Source of the DNA: a bacterium
Lineage (GTDB): Bacteria > Patescibacteriota > Gracilibacteria > UBA1369 > GCA-2718715
Assembly: GCA_002718715.1 (NCBI GenBank)
Contig: PBFJ01000009.1
Coordinates: forward strand, 723 to 64,722
Direction: 5' to 3'
Length of the DNA: 64,000 nt
The position numbers and the translations under genes are program-made. Below, piece after piece: positions 6,003 to 50,977 of this stretch; within the stretch, counting starts at the first letter, position 1, and every line of letters begins with the position of its first letter. The notes under the pieces are model-generated. The model made no database searches. It was given only the letters and a program-made list of their open reading frames with translations, and was not told the origin of the DNA.

Positions 6003-6935
6003 TTGCAAAAAAAATTTTTAAAATCACTACTATCAATTCTAATAGTTTTCCTAACATTCGGATTAAAATTTAATCATTCCCATGCAACGGTAGCTGAGAT
6101 ACCAATTGAAAGATGCAACTATCAATTTCCTAGATACGAAGATCTAATTCAAACAATTCAAGATAAAGATTTAATAACAAATAAAGATTTATTTATATGC
6201 CTAGCATTCATCGAAACAAAAGCATTATTAATTATGGACTCCACTCCACAAACACTAGAAGATTTGAACTCAGATCCAAGAATTAAATTATTTAAAGACT
6301 CTTACAATAAAGTATCAGATTGTTTTTATCTATTAGACATACCTACAAACCAAGATGCTAGAAGTATTCAAGAATCAAAATTAATAAACAGTCCGAGTGG
6401 AAAAGTTACTTTAGAAACATTTAAATCAATAGACTCTAAAGGTAACAATAACTGTCAAATAGATACACCTCATGAAATATGTCTTAGCAGACTAGAAAAA
6501 GAAAAAAGAGACGATCCAAGAGGAGTAGATTTTAAAATACAGAATGAGCTATATGGATGCTATGGAAATAGTGAAGCACCTAGAAATTTAATGGATTTAA
6601 GTTCAAACGAAAGAGGAATCAATAATTTTGAAGTTTTTAGCGAAGAAAAAGGGCTTGTCGCCAATACTCAACAAAAAACACAATTGAAAGAACTTACCGA
6701 AAATCAGGCTGGACCAGTCATAGGATTTATAAATATGATAATTGATTATTTAGTAGGAATAGTTTTTGTTTTATGTATGGCCTCGCTAATTTACGGAGGA
6801 TATAATCTAATTTTTGCTGGATTTGATTCAGATATGACCGAAAGAGGAAAAAACTCAATTAAATATGCTATCACAGGATTCTTCTTTATAATGCTTTCTT
6901 ACACAATAGTTATCCTAGTCCAAAGTATCTTCTAA
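6003..6935 (+). CDS. Secreted Cys-rich protein with a C-terminal two-TM pilin-like module, paralog 2 (TTG start)
   Basis: Signal peptide MQKKFLKSLLSILIVFLTFGL. The last ~104 aa are nearly identical to paralog 1 (NNFEVFSEEKGLVANTQQKTQLKELTENQAGPVIGFINMIIDYLVG...LIYGGYNLIFAGFDSDMTERGKNSIKYAITGFFFIMLSY). Confidence 0.6.
   Translation: MQKKFLKSLLSILIVFLTFGLKFNHSHATVAEIPIERCNYQFPRYEDLIQTIQDKDLITNKDLFICLAFIETKALLIMDSTPQTLEDLNSDPRIKLFKDSYNKVSDCFYLLDIPTNQDARSIQESKLINSPSGKVTLETFKSIDSKGNNNCQIDTPHEICLSRLEKEKRDDPRGVDFKIQNELYGCYGNSEAPRNLMDLSSNERGINNFEVFSEEKGLVANTQQKTQLKELTENQAGPVIGFINMIIDYLVGIVFVLCMASLIYGGYNLIFAGFDSDMTERGKNSIKYAITGFFFIMLSYTIVILVQSIF
6624..6935 (+). repeat. 312-nt 3' cassette of pilin-like paralog 2, the partner of 5617..5928
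   Basis: Same as the partner repeat. The upstream halves of the two genes are far more divergent. Confidence 0.85.
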
Positions 6936-22811: not shown

Positions 22812-23987
22812 ATGAAGTCAATATATCCAAAAATCATCAGTCTTAGTATCCTATCTATACTAGGACTTTCTTTATTTCTAACCAACATTGCAGTAGCTCA
22901 ATTAAGTGATGTTCCAAATCATTTATACAAAAGAGAAATTCAAGGTTTATTAGATTCTGGTTGTATTAAAGGTTACCCAGATAATACCTTTAAACCAGAT
23001 AAACTTGTAAGCAGAGTAGAAACACTAAAATTCATTTTAGAATGTATGCAAATGCCTGAAATTTATAGTGAAGAAAAATTTAAACTACCAAAAAATGCAG
23101 TTGTTCTTGTAAATAATCAAGAAATAAAATTAGACCAGGAAAGTGAAGTAACATTTAAATTACCTTTTAATCCAAATCTATACTCAGATGTATCATTTTT
23201 AGATATAGACACAAACTCTTGGTATATTCCATACTTAAAAGAAGCTGTTATAAGAAAACTTATATCTGGATATGTAGACAACACATTCAAACCACTGAAT
23301 AATGTTAAAAAGAAAGAATTTTTCACGATCCTATACAGAGCTGTACCAGAAAACCTAAAAACTGGACTCACACAAGAAGCAATTGCTTTAGACGTGAATG
23401 AAAAAGATTGGTCATACGAAGCTATACAGTTTTTCCTAGAAAATAAAATATTAGACCTAGGTGAAAAAAGAATATTCAATCCTGATAAAGAATTAAACAG
23501 AGGTCACATAGCTAAATTTATTTTTGATTATTTAAGATGGGAAGAAACAAAACTTAATCCTATTAAAGAGGTGGTAAAAGAAGTTATTAAAGAGGTACCA
23601 AATCCAGAAATAAAACCTGAAGAAGACAACACTCCTGAACAAGTAGATACTAATACTCTTACTCCAACCAAAGATGAAAACCAAGTTGGATTTAAAACAA
23701 GTGGAAAAGCTAGTTTTTATGCTGATTCATTAGCAGGAAATAAGACAGCATCAGGAGATATTTATGATCCAGAAAGATTTATGGCAGCTCATAAGACCCT
23801 TGCATTTGGAACTATTGTAAAAGTTACCAATGTGAGCAACGGAAAATGGGTAAAAGTTGTTATTCAAGATAGAGGTCCATACGCCAAAAACAGATTAATA
23901 GACCTATCAAAAAGTTCATTTCAAGCACTTGACGACTTAAGCAAAGGTCTCATTAATGTAGAAATTGAAATACTAGAAACTCCTTAA
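22812..23987 (+). CDS. SLH-domain cell-wall-anchored RlpA-like (double-psi beta-barrel) lytic transglycosylase
   Basis: Signal peptide. SLH-like repeats (SDVPNHLYKREIQGLLDSGCIKGYPDNTFKPDKLVSRVE and SGYVDNTFKP). C-terminal GKASFYADSLAGNKTASGDIYDPERFMAAHKTLAFGTIVKVTN...VVIQDRGPY is RlpA/DPBB. Confidence 0.8.
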   Translation: MKSIYPKIISLSILSILGLSLFLTNIAVAQLSDVPNHLYKREIQGLLDSGCIKGYPDNTFKPDKLVSRVETLKFILECMQMPEIYSEEKFKLPKNAVVLVNNQEIKLDQESEVTFKLPFNPNLYSDVSFLDIDTNSWYIPYLKEAVIRKLISGYVDNTFKPLNNVKKKEFFTILYRAVPENLKTGLTQEAIALDVNEKDWSYEAIQFFLENKILDLGEKRIFNPDKELNRGHIAKFIFDYLRWEETKLNPIKEVVKEVIKEVPNPEIKPEEDNTPEQVDTNTLTPTKDENQVGFKTSGKASFYADSLAGNKTASGDIYDPERFMAAHKTLAFGTIVKVTNVSNGKWVKVVIQDRGPYAKNRLIDLSKSSFQALDDLSKGLINVEIEILETP

Positions 23988-40354: not shown

Positions 40355-40844
40355 TTCAAACCTAGAACCAAACACTCAAGAAGAAACAAACCAAAACAAT
40401 GATTCTACTCAAGAAAAATCTCTGGAGGAACAATTAAGCGAAATGACAAACATTGCCAAAAGAGCAATGGCTGATTTGCAAAACTTCAAAACCCAAATGG
40501 CTAAAGAAAAACAAGAATATGCAAAGTTTGCAAGAGTTCAAGTTTTAGACAGCTTTTTGCCTATTTTAGACAATCTAAATTTAGCTTTAAAACAAACCCC
40601 AGAAGAATTAAAAGATCACAACTTCATTAAAGGAATTAATCAAATTCAAAAACAACTAGTTAAAATCACTGAAAACTTTGGATTAACTCCAATCTCACAC
40701 GAAATTCTAAACCCTCACATTCATGAAATAATTTCATCAATTCCAGGCGAACAAGATAAAATCATTGAAGTAATTGAGCAAGGTTATATGCTAGAAGACA
40801 GAGTTTTAAAACCTTCTAAAGTAGTAGTTGGAAACGGAAACTAA
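40341..40844 (+). CDS. grpE: Nucleotide exchange factor GrpE
   Basis: RAMADLQNFKTQMAKEKQE, LDNLNLAL and a C-terminal beta domain GYMLEDRVLKPSKVVV. It overlaps hrcA by 14 nt. Confidence 0.9.
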   Translation: MTETNSNLEPNTQEETNQNNDSTQEKSLEEQLSEMTNIAKRAMADLQNFKTQMAKEKQEYAKFARVQVLDSFLPILDNLNLALKQTPEELKDHNFIKGINQIQKQLVKITENFGLTPISHEILNPHIHEIISSIPGEQDKIIEVIEQGYMLEDRVLKPSKVVVGNGN

Positions 40845-40851
40845 AAAAAAC

Positions 40852-40880
40852 TTGCATTTTCATCATTAGCACTCTATAAT
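40852..40880 (+). promoter_or_regulatory. dnaK promoter (TTGCAT-N17-TATAAT)
   Basis: TTGCAT at 40852-40857 and a consensus TATAAT at 40875-40880. The -10 box lies inside the CIRCE spacer. Confidence 0.65.
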
Positions 40881-40892
40881 TCAGAGTGCTAA
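40866..40892. promoter_or_regulatory. CIRCE operator (HrcA binding site), a perfect consensus
   Basis: TTAGCACTC-N9-GAGTGCTAA read directly at 40866-40874 and 40884-40892, 26 nt upstream of the dnaK ATG. Confidence 0.92.
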
Positions 40893-40917: not shown

Positions 40918-42837
40918 ATGAGTAAAGTAATTGGAATCGATTTAGGTACCACAAACTCATGTGTAGCTGTAATGCAAGGTGGAGAAGCCGTAGTAATTTC
41001 TTCACAAGAAGGATTACGTACTACACCAAGTATGGTTGCCTATAAAAATGATGAAAGATTAGTAGGGGTTGCAGCCAAAAGACAAGCTGTTACAAATGCC
41101 CAAAATACTATTTTTTCAGCAAAAAGATTAATCGGTCACTCTTTTGATGAAATCAAAGGAATTATTGAAAACCTACCTTATAAAGTTGTAAAAGGTTCAA
41201 AAGGTGAAGCCGAAATTGAACTTAACGGAAAACAACACAGACCAGCTGAAATTTCAGCAATGGTTCTACAAAAACTTAAAGCTGACGCTGAAAGTTTCTT
41301 AGGACACGAAGTAACGCAAGCTGTAATTACTGTTCCAGCTTACTTTAATGATTCTCAAAGACAAGCCACTAAAGATGCAGGTAAAATTGCAGGACTTGAA
41401 GTTTTAAGAATCATCAACGAACCAACTGCTGCTTCCCTAGCCTATGGAATCGACAAAAAAGGTGGCGATAAAAAAGTTGCTGTTTACGATCTAGGTGGAG
41501 GTACTTTTGATGTATCTATCTTAGAAATATCTGACATTGACGGAGAAAAACAAATCGAAGTATTAGCTACAAATGGTAATACTACTCTAGGTGGTGATGA
41601 TTTTGATAATGCAATTTTAGAATACTTACTTGAAGAATTCAGAAAACAAGAAGGAATTGATCTTTCAAAAGATAAAGCTGCTCTTCAAAGACTTAAAGAA
41701 GCTGCCGAAAAAGCTAAAATCGAGCTTTCTTCAGCTGCCGAAACTGAAATAAACCTACCATTTATTACAGCTGACGCTGATGGTGCTAAACACTTAAACT
41801 TAAATCTTAAAAGATCAAAACTTGAAGAATTAGTTTCAGGGATCATTGATAGATCTTTAGAACCATGTAGAACAGCTCTTAAAGATTCTAAAATTTTTGA
41901 ATCAGATATCGATGAAGTTATTTTAGTAGGTGGTATGACAAGAATGCCACTGGTAAGAGAAAAAGTTAAAAACTTCTTTGGAAAAGAACCACACCAAGGA
42001 ATCAACCCAGATGAAGTAGTAGCTCTGGGAGCTGCAATTCAAGGTGGTGTATTACAAGGTGACGTAAAAGACGTACTTTTACTAGATGTAATTCCATTAA
42101 CTCTTGGAATTGAAACTTTAGGCGGTGTATCGACTCCATTAATCGAAAAAAATTCAACTATTCCAACTTCTAAATCTCAAGTTTTCTCAACTGCAGCCGA
42201 CAATCAACCATCAGTAGAAATTCATGTTCTACAAGGTGAAAGATCTATGGCCTCAGATAACAAATCTCTTGGTAGATTTATTCTTGATGGAATCGCTCCA
42301 GCACCAAGAGGAGTACCTCAAGTTGAAGTAACTTTTGATGTGGATGCTAACGGTATTTTAAATGTAAAAGCCGTAGACAAAGCAACTAACAAAGAACAAA
42401 AAATTACAATCACAGGTTCAAGCGGACTTACGGATGATGAAATCCAAAAAATGCAAGAAGAAGCCGAAAAATTTGCAGAAGAAGACAAAAAGAAAAAAGA
42501 ATCTATTGAAGTTGTAAATCAAGCCGAAAGCTTAGTTTACCAAACTGAAAAAACTTTAGAAGAACACAAAGAAAAAATCACTGAAGATATTTCAAAACCA
42601 GTTACCGAAAAAGTTGAAAGCATTAAAGAATTGCTAAAAGCCGAAAGCAAAGATGTAGACGCACTTAAAACTGCAATCGAAGAACTTAATCAAGAAGTTC
42701 AAAAAATTGGTCAAGCTATGTACTCTCAACCACAAGAAGGTGTAAACGTAGACGATCAAAACCAAACTGAATCAAACGAAGAAAGTACAGATAAAAAAGA
42801 TTCCAAAGACGACGAAGGCGAAGTAATTGATCAATAA
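40918..42837 (+). CDS. dnaK: Molecular chaperone DnaK (Hsp70)
   Basis: [32 protein letters not shown] and [13 protein letters not shown], plus an acidic C-terminal tail. Confidence 0.98.
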
Positions 42838-42896
42838 TCACTTACAAGTCCCCCTTCAAAACAACAAAAAAAGCCCCTTAACTCAAAGGGGCTTTT
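42769..42896 (+). repeat. Direct repeat copy A: the last 22 dnaK codons, the stop and the terminator
   Basis: It aligns to 43947..44069. I counted 8 mismatches in the 69-nt coding part, an identical tcacttacaagtccc, a small indel zone, and an identical terminator hairpin. Confidence 0.9.
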
Positions 42897-42898
42897 TT
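42872..42898 (+). terminator. Intrinsic terminator of dnaK
   Basis: The sequence agcccctt-aactca-aaggggct forms an 8-bp stem followed by T5. Confidence 0.8.
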
Positions 42899-43946
42899 AT
42901 AATCTAGATATAATGATTAACAACCAACATCTAATGTTTGATAATCCTCTTCATTTGTAATGTGAAATAGTATTAGATCATTTAAAAAAAATAAAAGTCG
43001 AATAGAATAATGTTGATTATAAGACTCGATTGTATAAACAAGTTCCAATACTTAATCATTAGGTATATCTCTAAACTCGCGTTCAAAACCAACACTAAAA
43101 TTATCTGAAACTGGAAAAGAATTTAAAAATCACGATCAAATTAAACTTCCATAGTGGTTTTCAATAAATTAATTTGCAATTCTGTATATGTTGTGGCATA
43201 ATAAGAAGATTTAATAAATTTAACACAAAAAACATGTCAATTATGAAACCAGGGCAAATGATTTGCCAACTACATGACAAACTCCAATCTGGAGATTATA
43301 AATTAGAAACGGTCTACGATGGAAATGATATTAATGCGCTTAATGATATAGTAAATCGTGAGAATGAACAAAAAAGAGAAAATACAATAAATGCAATAAT
43401 TGAAGAAATTAGTACTGGAAACTACAATCCAAAACAAATAAACGATATCGCTATAAAACACCTTATAATTAAACAAGGATTAATAGAAAACGGTATAATA
43501 CTATTTTCACCGATTACTCTAAACATTCATACATCACAAAAAACATTTAACATTCAAATAAATCCACAAGATATACCAAGTAAAAAAACTAGAGAAAATC
43601 AAAGTTTCGATGGAATTCATACCTATAAAGTAACTGGTTACTATCCTAAAAGTATAAAGACAGGTTCAATGAGTGATATAATTGGACATAAATTAAAAGA
43701 AGCCATGGAAACAAAAAACAAAGAAGAAATCAAAGCTCAATTAATAAAAGAATTCAAAAAATTTGCATACAATCAAAATCTTCAGAACTTACTATTTTTC
43801 AAAGTGATATATTCAAAATATGGTAATCCTGAAGAAATGGAATTTTCAATCAATCCAGAAGAAATTTATCCACCAAAGGTAGATGAAACCAGACAAGGAA
43901 TAACAAGAAAAATACTTAATATCTTTAAAAGATAGAAAAAGAAAAA
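42899..43946 (+). mobile_element. A ~1.05 kb insertion bracketed by the duplicated dnaK 3' end. It may be a remnant of an integrated element; no integrase is present.
   Basis: It lies between direct repeat copies A and B. It carries a 335-nt non-coding leader and one orphan ORF. Confidence 0.35.
43234..43935 (+). CDS. Orphan protein inside the dnaK-end-flanked insertion (233 aa counted from the ATG)
   Basis: Clean ORF starting MSIMKPGQMICQLHDKL. The track extension from TTG at 43174 (MQFCICCGIIRRF) looks spurious. I recognise no family. Confidence 0.5.
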   Translation: MSIMKPGQMICQLHDKLQSGDYKLETVYDGNDINALNDIVNRENEQKRENTINAIIEEISTGNYNPKQINDIAIKHLIIKQGLIENGIILFSPITLNIHTSQKTFNIQINPQDIPSKKTRENQSFDGIHTYKVTGYYPKSIKTGSMSDIIGHKLKEAMETKNKEEIKAQLIKEFKKFAYNQNLQNLLFFKVIYSKYGNPEEMEFSINPEEIYPPKVDETRQGITRKILNIFKR

Positions 43947-44069
43947 GAATCAAACAACGAAAGCACTGAAAAAAAAGATTCAAAAGATGACGAAGGCGAA
44001 GTAATTGAGCAATAATCACTTACAAGTCCCCTTTAAATCAAAAAAGCCCCTTAACTCAAAGGGGCTTTT
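43947..44069 (+). repeat. Direct repeat copy B: a relic dnaK 3' end ([22 protein letters not shown]) plus a terminator copy
   Basis: See copy A. The relic keeps the reading frame and the stop codon. Confidence 0.9.
44045..44069. terminator. Second copy of the dnaK terminator hairpin, placed between convergent genes
   Basis: The sequence agcccctt-aactca-aaggggct is flanked by an A-run upstream and TTT downstream. Confidence 0.6.
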
Positions 44070-44075
44070 AATTTG

Positions 44076-44885
44076 CTAATTTTTATTAACTAACAAAAAA
44101 CATTCTTGATTTTTCTGGGATTGATTAACAGAAAACAAAATATAGTAATCTTTTTCAAAACTAATAGGTTTTTCCCCATCAAATCCAATCACGGTACCTT
44201 GAGGAACGAAATCAAAATCCGTAAATTTTTTGACTAATTTAAAATCATTTGTTTTAGATTTATATATAAGTTTAGAGGCAAAAATCTGCTTACTTTTTCT
44301 AGACTTCAAAATTTCCCCATCTAACATATCTAATCCAATCAAAAAATCTATAACAGCCTGTATTGCAACATTGCTAGAATTTTTATCTCGCATATATCCA
44401 CATTCAATACAGATTCCAACTTTACCCTTGTTATACATATAACCATCAGTGGAACCAGGATGAAAAGCATCAATTCCAGTTAAAACTAAATCAAAATTCA
44501 AATTTTGAATATATTTGATTCCATTTTGTTCAGCAATAACAAAAGGCTGACTATCTGGTCCACTAGAGTGAATGTCTAATAAAATATCTGAATCATCTAA
44601 AAACTTTCGTATTTCTAGAGATCTTTGGTATTCATAAGTATCCTTAATTTGAGAATCAATTTCATCTAAAAAAATTCGATTCATATTAACATTGACTGCA
44701 CGTACATCCTTTTGAATCGCAAGTGGGTTAGCAATAATCAAATTCAATTTTCCTCTTTTTATCTTTAAATCAGAAACCAAAGATTGAATGGCCTCAACTC
44801 CACAAAATTCATTCCCATGGATTCCACCCATAATTGTTACTGTAGGACCTTTTAACTGTCCTTTAATTTCATAAATTGTTTGCAT
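44076..44885 (-). CDS. Succinylglutamate desuccinylase/aspartoacylase (AstE/AspA, M14-like zinc hydrolase) family protein
   Basis: GPTVTIMGGIHGNEFCGVEA (HxxE zinc site) and LLDIHSS (second His). Confidence 0.72.
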   Translation of the reverse strand: MQTIYEIKGQLKGPTVTIMGGIHGNEFCGVEAIQSLVSDLKIKRGKLNLIIANPLAIQKDVRAVNVNMNRIFLDEIDSQIKDTYEYQRSLEIRKFLDDSDILLDIHSSGPDSQPFVIAEQNGIKYIQNLNFDLVLTGIDAFHPGSTDGYMYNKGKVGICIECGYMRDKNSSNVAIQAVIDFLIGLDMLDGEILKSRKSKQIFASKLIYKSKTNDFKLVKKFTDFDFVPQGTVIGFDGEKPISFEKDYYILFSVNQSQKNQECFLLVNKN

Positions 44886-44898
44886 AAAGAAAAATTAA

Positions 44899-45642
44899 TT
44901 AATTATTTTTTAACATAAACACATAACCATCTCTATCAAATAAATTCGGACCATTTAAAACTTCAAATCCAAAAGATGAAAAAAGTTTAAAAGCTGGTGA
45001 TTTCAAACTAGTATTTAAAGTTACTACTCCTGACAAAGACTCTAATAAAGTTGAAACTAAAACTCTTCCCATTCCCTGATTTCTTAAAGCATCAATCACA
45101 CCCAATTCAGATAAATAATATATCTGACTATCAAGATCAAATTGACCTATTATATCTTCAGTTTCCAAATCATTAAAATCCCCTCTTTTTTGCAAGACAT
45201 CTAAAGTTGAAACTTTTTTAGCCCAGCAAAAACCAGCTACATAATTAAGCTCACCATTTAAGTAAAAAGGAGCAGTATTAGATGGAAATTCTCCAGCGGG
45301 AACTGTAAACTGTTGAAAATCATCGTTTATGTTAGAAGATTCCTCAGTTACTAACAAAACCATTTCAGATTCCGATGTAAAAGCTGATTGGAGTTCTAAT
45401 AAAAACTGATCTGAAATTTTAGAGATTGGAAAATAGGCCTCATCAATAATCCCACCATTTTCTCTAATTTTATTTATTCCAATTGCTTGTCCAGCTTTAT
45501 CCCTACCGGCTTCATTCCAAATTCGACCCGCAAAAATAGATTGATAAGCAACAGCTAAAGATTTTGCTACCTCAGCAAGATCAAGGTCATTAATAGCAAC
45601 CCCTTGATTAATATTACTAGTATTATTTTTTAAAATATTCAT
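44899..45642 (-). CDS. GNAT-family N-acetyltransferase with an extended N-terminal region
   Basis: The C-terminal motif A is YLSELGVIDALRNQGMGRVLVSTLLE, followed by AFKLFSSFGFEV. Confidence 0.6.
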   Translation of the reverse strand: MNILKNNTSNINQGVAINDLDLAEVAKSLAVAYQSIFAGRIWNEAGRDKAGQAIGINKIRENGGIIDEAYFPISKISDQFLLELQSAFTSESEMVLLVTEESSNINDDFQQFTVPAGEFPSNTAPFYLNGELNYVAGFCWAKKVSTLDVLQKRGDFNDLETEDIIGQFDLDSQIYYLSELGVIDALRNQGMGRVLVSTLLESLSGVVTLNTSLKSPAFKLFSSFGFEVLNGPNLFDRDGYVFMLKNN

Positions 45643-45728
45643 ATATTAAAAGTTAAATTATTATTTTGTGTTATAAAAAAATAAACAATGAAAATATGTA
45701 GAACGTGATTTATAAAGAAATTTCATAA

Positions 45729-46709
45729 TTAAAATACATTAAATAATATTTCTAGATTGGGGCTCATATTAACATCTACATTTCCACCAACAGGCAAAGT
45801 GCAAATAGGAAAAGTATGCCCAAAATCTGCATTAATAATTAAAAGTTTATTTTTAAGTTTAAGATTATTTAGTAAAATTTTCTTCAAAAAACTAAGAGAG
45901 ACTTTTGATTTTTTTTGAAATTTACCAAATACAAAACCAGAAATTGAATCAGCATCTTTTTGCTGTAACAAAGACTCTAAGTTACGTTCAAATTCAAATC
46001 CAGTGTATTTTCCACATAAACAATCTTCCTCTATAAACAAAATTTTATTTTTTAAACTTGGCATATAATCTGTCCCCTGCAACAAATTAAAAGAACATAA
46101 ATTACCTCCTAAAACTTGACCCTTAACAGGTACAAAATTTAAAATTTGGTTAGACTTTGTATTTCTCGCTATCAGTTTTTTTTGTGCATTTTTTTCAATA
46201 ATTAAATTCGAAGATATCAGATTGAAACTTGAATCTTTCATCAAACAATCTCGAAAAGATTTCAAGGTAAACTCATCAAGATCACTAGCGAAATAACTTA
46301 AATTTGGACCCAAATATGTAACTAAACCAGTTTTACTAAAAATTGAATTTAATAAAACAGTAATATCAGAATTTCCAATTAAAATCTTTGGATTTTCTTT
46401 TATTAAATTATAATCTAAGTAATCCAATAATTCATTGGCTACAAACCCACCTGAAACACACATAACCGCCTTAACACTTTTATCAGTAAACGCTTGCATA
46501 AAATCCTTGACTCTAGATTCACAAGAAGAAGAATTACGGTAATCAACTTCATAAAAATTGTCAGATAAAGTCACTTTAAAACCCAAATTAGACAGAGTAA
46601 GTATTGAGTTATCAATAATATCTTTCGAGAAGTAAGCAGCACTAAATGATGGAGATATAATTCTTATCTCATCACCAATTTTTAATTTAGCTGGAATAAT
46701 AGTTTTCAT
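45729..46709 (-). CDS. S66-family LD-carboxypeptidase (LdcA / MccF-like serine peptidase)
   Basis: LKIGDEIRIISPS, VKAVMCVSGG, a nucleophile elbow ILIGNSDITVL, and C-terminal DFGH. Confidence 0.8.
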   Translation of the reverse strand: MKTIIPAKLKIGDEIRIISPSFSAAYFSKDIIDNSILTLSNLGFKVTLSDNFYEVDYRNSSSCESRVKDFMQAFTDKSVKAVMCVSGGFVANELLDYLDYNLIKENPKILIGNSDITVLLNSIFSKTGLVTYLGPNLSYFASDLDEFTLKSFRDCLMKDSSFNLISSNLIIEKNAQKKLIARNTKSNQILNFVPVKGQVLGGNLCSFNLLQGTDYMPSLKNKILFIEEDCLCGKYTGFEFERNLESLLQQKDADSISGFVFGKFQKKSKVSLSFLKKILLNNLKLKNKLLIINADFGHTFPICTLPVGGNVDVNMSPNLEILFNVF

Positions 46710-46890
46710 AATTTAAAAGTTAAAAATAAAAAAAGCTCTTGATACAAAAGCTAAAAAAACAGAACAAAATTTATTTAAAAATTTGCTCCTAGAAAATATG
46801 ATGATGTGAAATAATAATAAACAACATAAAGTGTTTTAATTAATTAACACGTTAATGTTACCACAAAACATTTGAAAGTGTCAAATAAAA

Positions 46891-47217
46891 ATGTTACAAT
46901 TAAATAAAACACTCTGGAATATGCGTAAAAATCACAATCAAAACTTTCAAAAAAACCTAAATCAACTCTGCCAAGCATTATTAAAAATAGATTCAAAAAA
47001 AGATATAAAAAATTTTCTTATAGACCTGTGTACCGCTACTGAACTCCAGGCCATGAGCGAGAGACTAGAAGTTGCAAAGCTAATAAGTGAAAAAATACCA
47101 TACCGTAAAATTTCAGAAACTACAGGTTTAAGCACAACCACAATTACAAGGATTGCTAATTGGATGAAAGATGGCAAGCAGGGTTACAATAAAGTACTTA
47201 AAAACTTAGAATCCTAA
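46891..47217 (+). CDS. YerC/YecD (TrpR-like) DNA-binding protein
   Basis: LCQALLKIDSKKDIKNFLIDLCTATELQAMSERLEVAKLISEKIPYRKISETTGLSTTTITRIANWMKDGKQGY closely parallels B. subtilis YerC as I recall it. Confidence 0.8.
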   Translation: MLQLNKTLWNMRKNHNQNFQKNLNQLCQALLKIDSKKDIKNFLIDLCTATELQAMSERLEVAKLISEKIPYRKISETTGLSTTTITRIANWMKDGKQGYNKVLKNLES

Positions 47218-47643
47218 AGTCGAAAATATTTCTCCTTTAAAAATATCTTCCAATGCTTTTTTAACCTCTGGAACAATATTTTCAGGCAAATTATCAAATT
47301 CAAACCAAGTCAAATCAGAGCATTTATGAGGCTCTAAATTCTCTATTTCTCCTGAAAATTTTGAAGCTTTCAAATAAACATCAATATACTCACGTTCTCC
47401 CCTATTAGAGTTTCTATGGCTTACATGTACAACTTTCATATCTTCGGCAATGATATCAATGTTAACTTCTTCTTTGGTTTCACGCAGCATAGCCTGATAA
47501 ACAGTTTCATTACCATCTACATGGCCCGCTACCAAACTATACATTCCATCCATATAACCTGTGTTAAAGCGTTTTGCCATTAGTAACTTTCCATCTACTT
47601 CCAAAATAAGGTAAACTGCAAAGTAAGGTCTAAATCTATCCAT
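47206..47643 (-). CDS. NUDIX hydrolase
   Basis: Nudix box GHVDGNETVYQAMLRETKEEVNI. Confidence 0.85.
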   Translation of the reverse strand: MDRFRPYFAVYLILEVDGKLLMAKRFNTGYMDGMYSLVAGHVDGNETVYQAMLRETKEEVNIDIIAEDMKVVHVSHRNSNRGEREYIDVYLKASKFSGEIENLEPHKCSDLTWFEFDNLPENIVPEVKKALEDIFKGEIFSTLGF

Positions 47644-47704
47644 ATTAAAAATTAACTTATCCTATTTAAAGTCTAACAAAATAAAAATAATTTAAAAGAA
47701 TAAA

Positions 47705-48220
47705 ATGAAAAACATAAGAGATATAATGAGCAATACGATTCAAGAATATAAAGAACAAAAAATTTATCTTGAAGCAAATCTAATCCTTACTTCACTCCTA
47801 ACTCAGATATCAGAAGAAACAATTAGCATTATAACAAATGATGCTCAAAATAGAATTAATAAATTAATCAATTATGGAGTTCAAAATCCGGACCCTAAAA
47901 CACAAACAGAAAAAGCATTAAAAGAATACTTGTTTTATTCATCAAAACAAATTACATATTCTAAATATATCGATCTCTGTAAAGAATCAGGCAACACACC
48001 AAAAATACCTTATCATTTTAACAATAAAAGAGCCATCCACTCAAGAACCTATTATTTTATAGAAAAAGATCTCGAAATAGGAGGAAGTATATTATATGCA
48101 AGCAACCCAGCTACAATTATAAGATTCGAAAATTCTGCAGCAATCTATATAAAAATGGATAAAGACAACAAAAATTACACTATAAAAGATTATAAATTTA
48201 GCTCAGTCGAAAAAGTATAA
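47705..48220 (+). CDS. Hypothetical protein (171 aa) between the two Nudix genes
   Basis: Clean ORF with ATG and TAA. It has no signal peptide and no recognisable motif. Confidence 0.45.
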   Translation: MKNIRDIMSNTIQEYKEQKIYLEANLILTSLLTQISEETISIITNDAQNRINKLINYGVQNPDPKTQTEKALKEYLFYSSKQITYSKYIDLCKESGNTPKIPYHFNNKRAIHSRTYYFIEKDLEIGGSILYASNPATIIRFENSAAIYIKMDKDNKNYTIKDYKFSSVEKV

Positions 48221-48222
48221 AC

Positions 48223-48762
48223 TTAAACCCGAGTTAAATAACAAGCAAAAGCAGACAGAGTAACCCCACAAGTTATTTTCTTATTTCGAATTAAGTCTTT
48301 AATCTCTTCTAAAGTATACCAAAAAGTCTCACTGACTTCATCTTTATCATACTCTTGCCTTTCTATTGGGTGATCTAATTCACCACTAAAAACATATATT
48401 TTTTGAGTCATCATAGAATTTGTTGGATAAAACTCACCCAAAAAAGATAAATTATAAGCTTCAAATCCGGTTTCTTCTCTAAACTCTCTTTTCGCGGCAA
48501 TCATTGGCTCTTCATTTGGATCAATGCCACCAGCTGGTAATTCAAGAGAATCTTCAGTCCCCTGTACATAACGAATACATGAAACTAAAGCTATCTGAGC
48601 TTGAGCATTTTTTATTATACTAACAACCGAATCAGACGGAGTCTGTAAAACATGATGCTCATATGTATTACCGGAATGAGTTGTAATTTTATCTCTATGA
48701 ACATTAATAAACTTAGATTCATAAACAGTTTTTCGTTCAATAAATTTAGGTAATTTATTCAT
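48223..48762 (-). CDS. NUDIX hydrolase, ADP-ribose/NDP-sugar pyrophosphatase-like
   Basis: LELPAGGIDPNEEPMIAAKREFREETGFEA (Nudix box). The overall layout is NudF-like. Confidence 0.83.
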   Translation of the reverse strand: MNKLPKFIERKTVYESKFINVHRDKITTHSGNTYEHHVLQTPSDSVVSIIKNAQAQIALVSCIRYVQGTEDSLELPAGGIDPNEEPMIAAKREFREETGFEAYNLSFLGEFYPTNSMMTQKIYVFSGELDHPIERQEYDKDEVSETFWYTLEEIKDLIRNKKITCGVTLSAFACYLTRV

Positions 48763-48763
48763 A

Positions 48764-49099
48764 TTAGCTATTATTAGTTTTATTTTCTATTATCTCTTGC
48801 AGATCCTTCATATTTTTAGGAAATTCTTGATTTAAATCAACATTTAATTTTTGAGATAAAACCAAAACCACCCATAAAACATCGCAAAGTTCATGTGCAA
48901 TTTTATCATCTAAATTGTCAGTAGTTTTTGGCCTATTTCCTTGCTTTTCTTGAACCAATCTTATTAAATCACCTACATCAACCGATAAACCAAGCATTAA
49001 TTGATTAACATCCCACTTTTGACCATAATTTTGTTCTTCAAATCTCTCAAAAGATTCTCTTGTTGAAATAGCCATTTTATATAAATCCTTAAAATTCAT
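48764..49099 (-). CDS. MazG-like all-alpha nucleotide pyrophosphohydrolase (small form)
   Basis: A 111-aa helical protein with LGLSVDVGDLIRLV and AHELCDVLWVVLVLSQKLNVDL, resembling the MazG/YpjD-type metal-binding helices. It starts 1 nt after the Nudix gene. Confidence 0.55.
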   Translation of the reverse strand: MNFKDLYKMAISTRESFERFEEQNYGQKWDVNQLMLGLSVDVGDLIRLVQEKQGNRPKTTDNLDDKIAHELCDVLWVVLVLSQKLNVDLNQEFPKNMKDLQEIIENKTNNS

Positions 49100-49151
49100 G
49101 CATATTGATTAAACACAAACATAAGGTATACAAAGCAAAAAAAAAGTCAAA

Positions 49152-49985
49152 TCAGCGAATTCTTTTATCTATTCTATACAAACGTGTCTTCTTTAAAAAA
49201 CCTTCTTTTAAAATAGTAAAAAAAGCAAAAATTAAATCTTTAAAATTTCCATTACTAGACACCAAAGGTTTACCCTCAATTGTTGTAATAATATTAAAAT
49301 CATAATCTAAATCACCAGTTTTAGTCTGTTTAATAAGTGTGCAATTACCGATATCTGAAAAAACATGAGCATCTGATGCAAAAACTTTAATATATTTTTC
49401 TAAATAACCTTTATGCTCAAAATCAAGAGTGTTTTCAATCAAAAAATTTAACCTTTTTAATAAAAAATTAAAACGCAATTTTTTTAAAATAAAATTTAAA
49501 TATAAAAAGGAATAATTTGAACTTTCTAGCATAATCCCATCAAAATATAATTCATCTAATTTTTCTAAATCCATTACTCGCAAAATACCCGTAGATGATG
49601 GAGTAGAAGGATGTGGAACAATTAACTTTAAATCGCTATCACTTTTTACCAAATTAAAAACTTCCTCAACAGATAATAAAAAAGGGTTCAAAAGATCTTG
49701 TCTACCAAATACGCTAGAAGGATTCTTCGAAAAAACAATCAGATCAATGCCCTCAGACGTTATATACTCAAGACCTGGTAATAAAATAGTATTATGATTT
49801 GCTGGTCTATATTTAATCATATTTTGATAAGCCTTAACAGGACGCCTAAAAACATGTTCCGTACAAACTACAAAATCTAATGCTTCTAAAGTGAATTTAT
49901 CCCATAACTTTAAAGCTCTTTTCTTAGTTAAAAAACTCGAAATATAAGTAAAATTAGGATGAAAATGATAATCTACTTTAATCAT
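49152..49985 (-). CDS. PHP-domain (polymerase/histidinol-phosphatase-like) metal-dependent phosphoesterase
   Basis: The N-terminus has VDYHFHPN, then CTEHVF, later PHPS and SDAHV. These His-rich motifs have PHP-like spacing. It ends in TGA. Confidence 0.5.
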   Translation of the reverse strand: MIKVDYHFHPNFTYISSFLTKKRALKLWDKFTLEALDFVVCTEHVFRRPVKAYQNMIKYRPANHNTILLPGLEYITSEGIDLIVFSKNPSSVFGRQDLLNPFLLSVEEVFNLVKSDSDLKLIVPHPSTPSSTGILRVMDLEKLDELYFDGIMLESSNYSFLYLNFILKKLRFNFLLKRLNFLIENTLDFEHKGYLEKYIKVFASDAHVFSDIGNCTLIKQTKTGDLDYDFNIITTIEGKPLVSSNGNFKDLIFAFFTILKEGFLKKTRLYRIDKRIR

Positions 49986-50143
49986 AAAATTTAAATTACA
50001 AAATTATACTATCAAATAAACAAAAAAAGTATAGTTTTTAAAAAATTTGTAATAAAAAGAAAACAAAAAACACGTTCAAAGTACTAAAATTTATCGCAAC
50101 TCATGCAGCCAAAGTAGAAACATACAACTTCATAATGGGATAG

Positions 50144-50977
50144 TTAAAAACTCTCCCAAATAAAATTATGCAATAATTCCAAAGATTTTACCAAGTTAAT
50201 ATCTTGAATTAAAACACCCGAAGAATTTTTATAATTAACAAACAAAACCTTATCATCATAAATAATAATATCAGACTTAAAAGGCAACTGAGAATAATTT
50301 AACGCCTTATATTCATAATTTGGATTTGAAATTTCACTTAAAGCTTTTAACAAAACCTTACTTTTACAATTTACCAAAATCTCTCGCACATTTTGCGTAG
50401 ATTTTTGTAAATTATCCAAAAAAGACTTATAAAAATCTAAGTGATTCTTGCTAACTTCATAAGGATTATAAAATGCTAAATATGATTTATTCAAAACAAT
50501 ATCAGCTACTACTTTATCAATTTCTGTATTAAAATAATATCTTACGTTAACTTTAGATGAATCTATTTTATAAATTTTATCAAGATCAGGAACTATAGAA
50601 ACAAAATCGTCTTTTAATTTCAATAACTTATCTTTCTTTTTATCTAAAATATTCTGCAATTCATAAGGCGAAACAGCATAAAATTTATTTACCTTCGAAT
50701 CTAAATCTAAATACAACAATCTTTTAGAAACCAAGTCATCCACAATCTTATAACAATTAACTCTAGGAATTCCAGATCTTTCAGAAATCTCAGAAATTTT
50801 CAATCCATTACTGGAAATCACTTTAAAAAACACATCAATCTCTTGCTCATTACAAGATAAGTCTTTAAGAACTTGGCTCAGAATTTTTCTATGTTTCACT
50901 TTCGTGTAATTTAAAAATAAATAAATATCCTTAGTTAAAATTAGTATCGAGAGTAAAATTACAAAACACAATTTCAA
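50144..50977 (-). CDS. TrmB-like HTH transcriptional regulator, second paralog
   Basis: LSCNEQEIDVFFKVISSNGLKISEISERSGIPRVNCYKIVDDLVSKRLLY. It has the same architecture as 14390..15142. The N-terminal hydrophobic stretch may mean the start is internal. Confidence 0.62.
   Translation of the reverse strand: MKLCFVILLSILILTKDIYLFLNYTKVKHRKILSQVLKDLSCNEQEIDVFFKVISSNGLKISEISERSGIPRVNCYKIVDDLVSKRLLYLDLDSKVNKFYAVSPYELQNILDKKKDKLLKLKDDFVSIVPDLDKIYKIDSSKVNVRYYFNTEIDKVVADIVLNKSYLAFYNPYEVSKNHLDFYKSFLDNLQKSTQNVREILVNCKSKVLLKALSEISNPNYEYKALNYSQLPFKSDIIIYDDKVLFVNYKNSSGVLIQDINLVKSLELLHNFIWESF

Follow-up and report, generated by a model that had tools for sequence, protein, structure and literature searches.

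We analyzed a 64,000-nucleotide (nt) stretch of a patescibacterial genome (contig PBFJ01000009.1 of assembly GCA_002718715.1, positions 723 to 64,722; hereafter the window), in which the 3' end of the chaperone gene dnaK, together with its terminator, occurs on both sides of a 1.2-kb piece with a single orphan gene. The genome belongs to a marine Peregrinibacteria/Gracilibacteria-like genus of the candidate-phyla-radiation (CPR) bacteria, and the duplication is situated in a zone immediately following dnaK that is hypervariable. We consider the structure to be probably the scar of combined homologous and illegitimate recombination, left when a strain-specific orphan gene was acquired next to dnaK on its downstream side.

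RESULTS

The dnaK 3' end and its terminator are duplicated around an orphan gene

A repeat search of the window yielded a 102-nt direct repeat of 86% identity (positions 42758 to 42859 and 43936 to 44037) and an identical 30-nt terminator stretch (42867 to 42896 and 44040 to 44069). When the upstream copy (copy A) was aligned with the downstream copy (copy B), the start of the spacer was identical over 16 nt (TCACTTACAAGTCCCC). Comparison with relatives extended the edges of the repeat slightly, to approximately 42758 to 42909 and 43936 to 44079. An initial annotation of this DNA had reported the duplicated dnaK end and terminator, and at least nine assemblies bore it out in addition to the repeat search and the alignment. 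Equally, the space between the copies holds, as it had stated, a 335-nt non-coding leader and one orphan open reading frame (ORF). The hairpin pattern occurred exactly twice in 64 kb, compared with 0 occurrences expected from shuffled sequences. Both hairpins are strong stem-loops and were predicted to be terminators on both strands, which suits them to a position between convergent genes. The features of the locus are as follows.

40918 to 42837, + strand: dnaK, 639 amino acids (aa); Pfam HSP70, E value of 4e-260; conserved anchor whose 3' end is copy A
42758 to 42909, + strand: copy A of the repeat; last 22 dnaK codons (42769 to 42834), stop codon, spacer, terminator hairpin, and a few bases beyond
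42867 to 42898, both strands: terminator A; stem GCCCCTT/AAGGGGC with an A/T-run extension, loop AACTCA; -18.5 kcal/mol, z score of -4.6
42899 to 43233, + strand: leader of the insert; 335 nt, non-coding, no ORF of 50 aa or more, no Rfam family
43085 to 43153, - strand: probable remnant of the 5' end of a 1350-aa gene; 72% identity over 75 nt to L006 positions 6718 to 6791, E value of 8e-6
43174 to 43202, + strand: promoter-like site of the orphan gene, by consensus match alone; TTGCAA, 17 nt, TG-n-CATAAT; 9 of 12 matches, extended -10 TG
43234 to 43935, + strand: orphan gene (cargo); 233 aa, or 230 aa from the second ATG at 43243
43936 to 44079, + strand: copy B of the repeat; dnaK tail (43947 to 44015), spacer, terminator, and native flank towards the AstE-like gene
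44040 to 44069, both strands: terminator B; -16.7 kcal/mol (z score of -3.7) on the + strand, -17.5 kcal/mol on the - strand
44076 to 44885, - strand: AstE/AspA-like gene; Pfam AstE_AspA_cat, E value of 1e-20; ancestral convergent neighbor of dnaK, which it directly adjoins in L004

The dnaK tail of copy B has no start codon, and an in-frame stop codon is located upstream of it at 43926 to 43928. Read from these two features, copy B is a dead, displaced, and non-functional fragment of dnaK. Its terminator is predicted to serve the orphan gene on the + strand and the AstE-like gene on the - strand now.

Empty and occupied sites occur among related strains

As related loci, we used the contigs of the closest DnaK variants, which are referred to by L numbers. 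A search of reference genomes with the AstE-like protein gave no match, and a DNA-pattern scan later provided one representative genome, L028 (reference genome bin JABJGM010000012.1). The initial annotation had pointed to an empty site, with dnaK followed directly by the AstE-like gene, as the observation to look for, and this order was found in L004 (about 85% nucleotide identity). L004 represents the empty site, because its sequence beyond the hairpin can be aligned with that beyond copy B in the window. The flank on the 3' side of the copy B hairpin matches both this empty-site flank and the copy B flank of L011.

Other relatives differ in what follows dnaK and its terminator. In L005, L006, L007, and L009, a minus-strand orphan gene of 1350 aa is found there. 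L011, L012, and L016, which are 90 to 97% identical to the window, carry a 265-aa orphan gene on the minus strand, then a second dnaK tail with spacer and hairpin, and then the AstE-like gene. The same gene (265 to 267 aa) and a second dnaK tail are also present in L013 and L028, followed there by the 1350-aa gene. Depending on the strain, the interval between dnaK and its neighbor thus holds the 233-aa gene, the 265- to 267-aa gene, or nothing. These comparisons support the view that the window insert is an insertion relative to an ancestral dnaK-terminator-AstE order, as well as the view that the site downstream of dnaK has been used repeatedly. The outcome that would have spoken against insertion according to the initial annotation, a duplication in all relatives with no empty site among them, was not observed: L004 is empty, and L009 is empty relative to L028.

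Further downstream, the stretch from 44076 to 50977, between dnaK and a TrmB-like regulator gene, was variable throughout when compared with L006, L017, and L028. Some strains have the single 1350-aa orphan gene in place of the AstE, GNAT-like, LD-carboxypeptidase, and TrpR genes. In a neighboring genus, the dnaK-TrmB stretch is absent and TrmB directly follows dnaK.

The 6-nt terminator loop (42880 to 42885 and 44053 to 44058 in the window; also in L005, L011, and L013) was found in either orientation, depending on the strain and copy. For instance, reverse complementation of the L005 loop TGAATT gives exactly the loop of L011 copy B, AATTCA. By sequence, this looks like flip-flop inversion inside a perfect palindromic stem.

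A sister cassette points to displacement of the resident dnaK end

The 265- to 267-aa cargo, here termed the sister cassette, is unrelated in sequence to that of the window and lies on the opposite strand, at the same spot and likewise bracketed by a dnaK-tail and terminator repeat. Its repeat is 105 nt long and starts 41 nt before the dnaK stop codon, while that of the window is about 140 nt long and starts about 66 to 80 nt before the stop codon. The insert ends of the two cargos share no sequence. No match to the 265-aa cargo was found in viral contigs.

L009 corresponds to L028 minus 983 nt, with identities of 99.7% on the left side and 99.9% on the right side and a 105-nt overlap that aligns to both copies. 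The downstream copy of L028 has exactly the spacer (CCCCCTTTAAAACAACAAAAAA), the hairpin (loop GGAATT), and the flank of the empty-site strain L009, whereas the spacer and hairpin of its upstream copy are of a different type, also seen in L010 and L011. Displacement predicts this pattern, in which the downstream copy would be the recipient's own dnaK end, pushed aside by incoming donor DNA that was already equipped with one.

L011, L013, and L028 have the same junction between cargo and downstream copy, and the sequence to the right of this junction follows the local background. Three downstream backgrounds thus contain the sister cassette with the same left junction: one with the AstE-like gene (L011) and two types with the 1350-aa gene (L013 and L028). 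This indicates that the sister cassette formed once and was then moved by homologous recombination. In copy B of L013, half a hairpin is fused to the complete hairpin of another strain type, and the breakpoint is located inside the hairpin; from its sequence, this fusion reads plainly as an illegitimate joint.

Copy B carries the signature of a working dnaK end

The 69-nt coding parts of copies A and B differ by 8 mismatches, which comprise 4 synonymous changes, 2 D/E changes, and 1 E/N codon. This recount agrees with the initial annotation, and the codon bias proved stronger than it had stated, with 7 of the 8 mismatches at third codon positions (binomial P of about 0.003). At least 4 synonymous changes among 8 mismatches have a P value of about 0.03. 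Polarized with the L004 and L005 sequences, 6 of the 8 mismatches are derived in copy B, and third positions account for 5 of these 6 copy B-specific changes (P of about 0.018). The third-position bias argues against neutral decay and for divergence of the copy B coding part in another lineage, at the end of a working dnaK, so the earlier proposal that copy B once terminated a functional dnaK stands. Its coding part bears what appears to be the signature of coding evolution as the dnaK end of a lineage so far unsampled; no DnaK ending in the tail of copy B was present among the sampled DnaK proteins.

L009, L005, and L004 share the spacer type of copy A (AAAACAACAAAAAA). This is also the type of strains with the 1350-aa gene downstream, while the flank of copy B is of the AstE-background type. 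In the leader, the minus-strand translation reads NSFPVSDNFS, compared with NSFPSSDNFN at the N terminus of the 1350-aa protein (shared NSFPxSDNF), and we regard the stretch from 43085 to 43153 with moderate confidence as probably left over from the 5' end of the gene for that protein. Taken together, the spacer type of copy A and the leader remnant suggest that the donor carried the 1350-aa gene next to dnaK and that most of this gene was lost later.

Homologous exchange in the anchor gene was evident in two ways. First, dnaK is mosaic among lineages, as the nearest relative by third-position differences switches between 240-nt segments of the gene. Second, divergence is unequal on its two sides: third-position divergence of the window from L011 drops from between 0.18 and 0.22 upstream of dnaK to between 0.07 and 0.09 downstream, which identifies dnaK as a recombination boundary.

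A 15-nt identity was noticed between grpE and copy B. Positions 40767 to 40781 in grpE contain GAAGTAATTGAGCAA (EVIEQ), identical to positions 43998 to 44012 in copy B, and the working dnaK has GAT (EVIDQ). On the sequences at hand, this identity is probably due to chance.

The cargo is an orphan gene in a nearly clonal population

The reading frame of the cargo is open over 700 nt in DNA of 27% G+C content, and the cargo is probably a real, lineage-specific gene, as far as its sequence allows it to be judged. The homology and structure checks proposed in the initial annotation provided neither a credible relative nor a confident fold. Nothing but the orphan protein itself was matched among 5.8 billion clustered proteins. 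In an exhaustive HMMER search of 1.84 billion representative proteins, the sole other match was P0126, a 901-aa SLH-domain surface protein. Its E value of 6e-13 is the sum over six near-identical repeats of approximately 36 bits each. A single repeat match of that score is not significant against 1.84 billion proteins, and this candidate homologue was deemed unreliable. AlphaFold2, run without an alignment, returned a predicted local distance difference test score of 41 for the orphan protein. Pfam, PHROGs, and PADLOC gave nothing solid, with no match at all in PHROGs. A defense or phage function was considered and set aside, as the only hint of it was a marginal PADLOC match (PD-T4-2_B, E value of 0.003).

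An E-value scan of 42600 to 44300 against Rfam returned only sub-threshold, terminator-like matches, and an RNA element in the leader was rejected for this reason. The search for a grpE remnant on its forward strand gave nothing convincing. The initial annotation had also suggested looking for other copies of the leader; no second copy turned up in the window or across the related loci used for comparison. The start of the orphan gene differs by assembly (L023, L026, and L027 compared), being placed either at the first ATG (233 aa) or at the second ATG at 43243 (230 aa).

The whole arrangement is present in at least nine independent ocean-metagenome assemblies, with a single variable site (43254, G/A) over positions 42600 to 44200. 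This agreement indicates that the arrangement is not an assembly artifact and that the population is nearly clonal. The variant, the only one in 1.6 kb of the population, is synonymous. No empty site was found in the window's own population, in which all 13 contigs with the identical AstE-like protein were either occupied or ended at the repeat. The best DnaK matches were to Peregrinibacteria, Gracilibacteria, and other Patescibacteria, and the genome has a G+C content of about 30%. Elsewhere in the window, the gene at 22812 to 23987 encodes an SLH-domain protein that also has a lytic transglycosylase-like DPBB domain, and the product of the gene at 6003 to 6935 contains a type IV secretion pilin domain. 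Judging from their domains, these proteins may be relevant to the cell envelope and to DNA exchange.

Other origins of the duplication

The initial annotation had explained the structure by an element that integrates into the 3' end of dnaK and brings its own replacement gene end, either decayed or mobilized in trans. In its full form, this explanation invokes something comparable to a cis-mobilizable element or a satellite, with the recombinase encoded elsewhere, an att site in the dnaK 3' end or terminator, and an att site on the element that mimics the dnaK tail, so that the repeats are attL and attR. Part of it holds, because the insertion did bring a dnaK end and because an empty site exists in L004. 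The direct repeats and the single-repeat unoccupied sites (L004, and L009 relative to L028) are what an att-bounded island would leave, and the site was used at least twice. The left part of copy B resembles a foreign yet functional dnaK end, and the hairpin breakpoint in L013 and the loop in both orientations could hint at a hairpin-acting enzyme. However, independent insertions do not share a core or repeat boundaries: the left boundary of the repeat differs by cargo (about 140 nt compared with 105 nt), and the insert ends have nothing in common. The repeat has its mismatches on the left and is identical on the right, whereas the reverse would be expected if an element supplied the replacement gene end on the right of its core. 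In the sister cassette, moreover, the downstream repeat has the recipient's own spacer and hairpin.

Machinery for such integration was not found either. Pfam scans and the repeat search agreed with the initial annotation that the insert lacks an integrase, a transposase, and inverted repeats. The insert, another 10 window ORFs, and the neighboring genes with Pfam listings (20 kb) yielded no integrase or transposase, and no integrase was present among the cargo genes of relatives or the genes called in the retrieved parts of related loci. The repeat search showed no terminal inverted repeats of the insert. None of 2.9 million viral contigs contained the core 27-mer, which occurred in metagenome contigs only in the same chromosomal context. 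The cargo consists of one orphan gene. A mechanism resembling that of islands in tRNA genes was therefore unsupported, and we consider a site-specific integrative element, whether decayed or acted on in trans, to be an unlikely origin. Features of insertion sequences and transposons were missing as well (no transposase, no terminal inverted repeats, and a duplication of 105 to 140 nt), as were those of class C group II introns (no ribozyme by Rfam and no reverse-transcriptase domain in the ORF).

Still less probable, in our assessment, is a local duplication of the dnaK tail and terminator by slippage, unequal crossing-over, or staggered-break fill-in, followed by capture of the cargo and neutral decay of copy B. 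It would account for the lineage-specific spacer state ACAAGT and the identical hairpin loop that are common to both copies, and for the finding that most differences (6 of 8, by the L004/L005 polarization) are derived in copy B. Neutral decay, however, does not predict that 7 of 8 changes fall at third positions (P of about 0.003). Copy A and copy B have spacer types that correspond to different strain backgrounds, and the copies of the sister cassette are clearly of different backgrounds. The source of the cargo is also left without an explanation.

The last alternative involves a gene upstream of dnaK. All sampled close relatives have a genus-specific orphan of 239 to 242 aa, here called gene X, between grpE and dnaK (L004, 5095 to 5922; L005, 5100 to 5927; L011, 5086 to 5922). 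Gene X has its own terminator and promoter, and its family comprises only 4 protein clusters. It has marginal matches to PD-Lambda-2_A (PADLOC, E value of 9e-4) and phrog_4123 (PHROGs, E value of 0.032). In more distant relatives, grpE is directly beside dnaK (L017) or a different gene lies between them (L008). The window is without gene X and retains the following trace of it.

40838 to 40850, + strand: scar of gene X loss; clean deletion between AAAYTAAAAA micro-repeats (alignment with L004, L005, and L011)

The cargo could in principle be a strongly diverged gene X that moved downstream of dnaK. Such a move would have required either that X-dnaK was duplicated in tandem and then underwent reciprocal losses, or that a rearranged grpE-X-dnaK segment was imported from a distant relative. 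The window alone lacks gene X upstream and alone has the orphan gene downstream, the two proteins are of similar size (233 compared with 239 to 242 aa), and their C-terminal motifs are alike (QGITRKILNIFKR compared with EGIAGRIKRLFS). The 160 nt upstream of the orphan gene are colinear, at 61% identity, with the grpE end, terminator, -35 element, extended -10 element, and leader of gene X; these upstream-region similarities rank 2nd to 4th of 115 upstream regions. The left part of copy B, furthermore, is foreign-like. Nevertheless, an unrelated upstream region outscores that of gene X, profile comparison gave a P value of 0.25 and a probability of 0.2%, pairwise z scores reached just 1.2 to 2.5, and the orphan gene was not among the listed best-scoring window ORFs in the profile search with gene X. 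Because divergence beyond recognition is implausible within lineages that are 90 to 97% identical, and because the sister cassette, whose strains still have gene X in place, is left without an explanation, we rate a moved gene X as the least credible of the origins considered.

Between the gene X scar and dnaK, a canonical controlling inverted repeat of chaperone expression (CIRCE) operator (TTAGCACTC-N9-GAGTGCTAA, 40866 to 40892) overlaps the dnaK promoter (-10 TATAAT, 40875 to 40880). The operator is kept in all relatives and hrcA is located just upstream, an arrangement consistent with predicted control by HrcA.

DISCUSSION

Probable recombination anchored in dnaK

The explanation that we favor for the window is a recombination event anchored in dnaK. 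Donor DNA consisting of the dnaK 3' part, terminator, leader, and orphan gene would have entered a cell whose chromosome had the order dnaK-terminator-AstE. On the left side, homologous recombination would have taken place within the highly conserved dnaK, which is visibly mosaic. The right end would have been joined illegitimately inside the resident dnaK tail, displacing the resident last 22 codons, spacer, and terminator downstream as copy B, while the donor dnaK end (copy A) would complete the gene. The same structure would also result from single-crossover (Campbell-type) insertion of a circularized fragment. After its formation, such a cassette can enter relatives by double-crossover homologous recombination irrespective of the downstream genes, as shown by the sister cassette and as may hold for that of the window. 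Its arms would be the body of dnaK and the dnaK tail with the terminator, both of which are present in every genome, and a recombinase belonging to the insert would have no role. Copy B may have been retained since its bidirectional terminator insulates the orphan gene from the convergent AstE-like gene.

It should be noted that several observations weigh against this explanation. The joint of the window itself (about 43928 to 43947) lies in an A-rich, low-complexity stretch in which microhomology is not delimitable. No lineage was found that carries the orphan gene downstream of dnaK without copy B. Neither a donor nor a DnaK with the tail of copy B was found, and for this reason the formation of the window cassette is inferred from the parallel with the sister cassette. 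The window-specific ACAAGT in the spacer and the loop AACTCA are common to copies A and B, yet the coding parts of the two copies differ at 30% of third positions. Such uneven similarity calls for an extra assumption, either gene conversion between the repeats or heteroduplex repair at the crossover. The empty site of L009 comes from a short metagenome contig, where a jump of the assembler across a 61-nt exact repeat is possible in principle; arguing against an artifact, L009 has 6 differences from L028 in the dnaK region (L010 has 1), and three independent L005-type assemblies are also empty. Finally, every contig of the window's own population is occupied, which gives no direct sign of current mobility.

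Comparison with known systems

Genomic islands and cis-mobilizable elements integrate at the 3' ends of tRNA, tmRNA, and housekeeping genes via tyrosine or serine recombinases. At the dnaK locus, as with these elements, the direct repeats take in the 3' end of a conserved gene, which is left intact, and both empty and occupied sites occur in a population. The locus differs in that no integrase was found at the locus or among the retrieved genes of relatives, boundaries vary without shared ends, the downstream repeat is recipient specific, and the cargo amounts to about 1 kb. Integron cassettes are similar to the cassettes at dnaK in that a single gene with a palindrome-bearing repeat is stacked beside a fixed point. 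However, no IntI was found at the dnaK locus, and its repeat contains dnaK coding sequence. Compared with attC, the hairpin is a perfect 11- to 13-bp terminator stem with a 6-nt loop and has neither paired R and L boxes nor extrahelical bases.

A closer parallel in terms of process is an established model in which one-sided homologous recombination is combined with illegitimate recombination and displaced 3' ends are left behind (PMC5361080 and references therein). C-terminal displacement arrays of this kind are known from rhs loci and from the type VI secretion effector-immunity arrays of Vibrio cholerae (PMC5361080, PMC122324, PMC122325, PMC2935791). These arrays and the dnaK locus have in common a conserved upstream anchor and a resident 3' end that is kept as an orphaned fragment, and the illegitimate join at the far end would be a further parallel. 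In both, repeated events build arrays in the absence of a recombinase. The anchor at the dnaK locus is a housekeeping chaperone gene, whereas it is a polymorphic toxin gene in the arrays, and the cargo is one orphan gene instead of an effector-immunity pair. Furthermore, the new and old 3' ends are homologous at dnaK, so that the scar looks like a direct duplication, and the displaced piece includes a bidirectional terminator that is still in use.

The minimal mobile elements of Neisseria, in the account of Saunders and Snyder (2002) as cited in PMC1797815, are alternative small gene sets at one syntenic site that are thought to spread by transformation and homologous recombination. Going by this summary, they share with the dnaK locus strain-variable genes between conserved sequences and no mobility genes. 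As summarized there, they lie between two different conserved flanking genes and leave no duplication, while both arms at the dnaK locus come from dnaK itself (body and duplicated tail) and insertion is independent of the downstream genes. What we describe is thus a new variant of known recombination-scar and cassette-exchange phenomena.

Implications for gene gain in CPR bacteria

It is tempting, though speculative, to view the duplicated tail as the part that turns orphan-gene cassettes into recombinase-free mobile units and as a general trade route of CPR bacteria; an enzyme so far unknown that acts on hairpins and targets the dnaK terminator would be the alternative form of this idea. If true, the cassette's own copy of the dnaK tail and terminator would act as the right homology arm and would allow insertion into any relative after DNA uptake. 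Within CPR bacteria, natural competence with homologous integration has been shown for Saccharibacteria only (PMC10633639).

Gene gain is poorly understood in these streamlined, uncultivated bacteria, in which many genes have no relatives. The dnaK locus provides a clean natural series: besides an empty site and two different occupants, it comprises a hybrid joint and a cassette that is present in three backgrounds. The anchor of the recombination is one of the most conserved genes in biology. Direct repeats of the 3' end of a gene should not be taken on their own as evidence of an integrase-driven island. The series shows that orphan genes are gained and passed between strains without mobile-element machinery.

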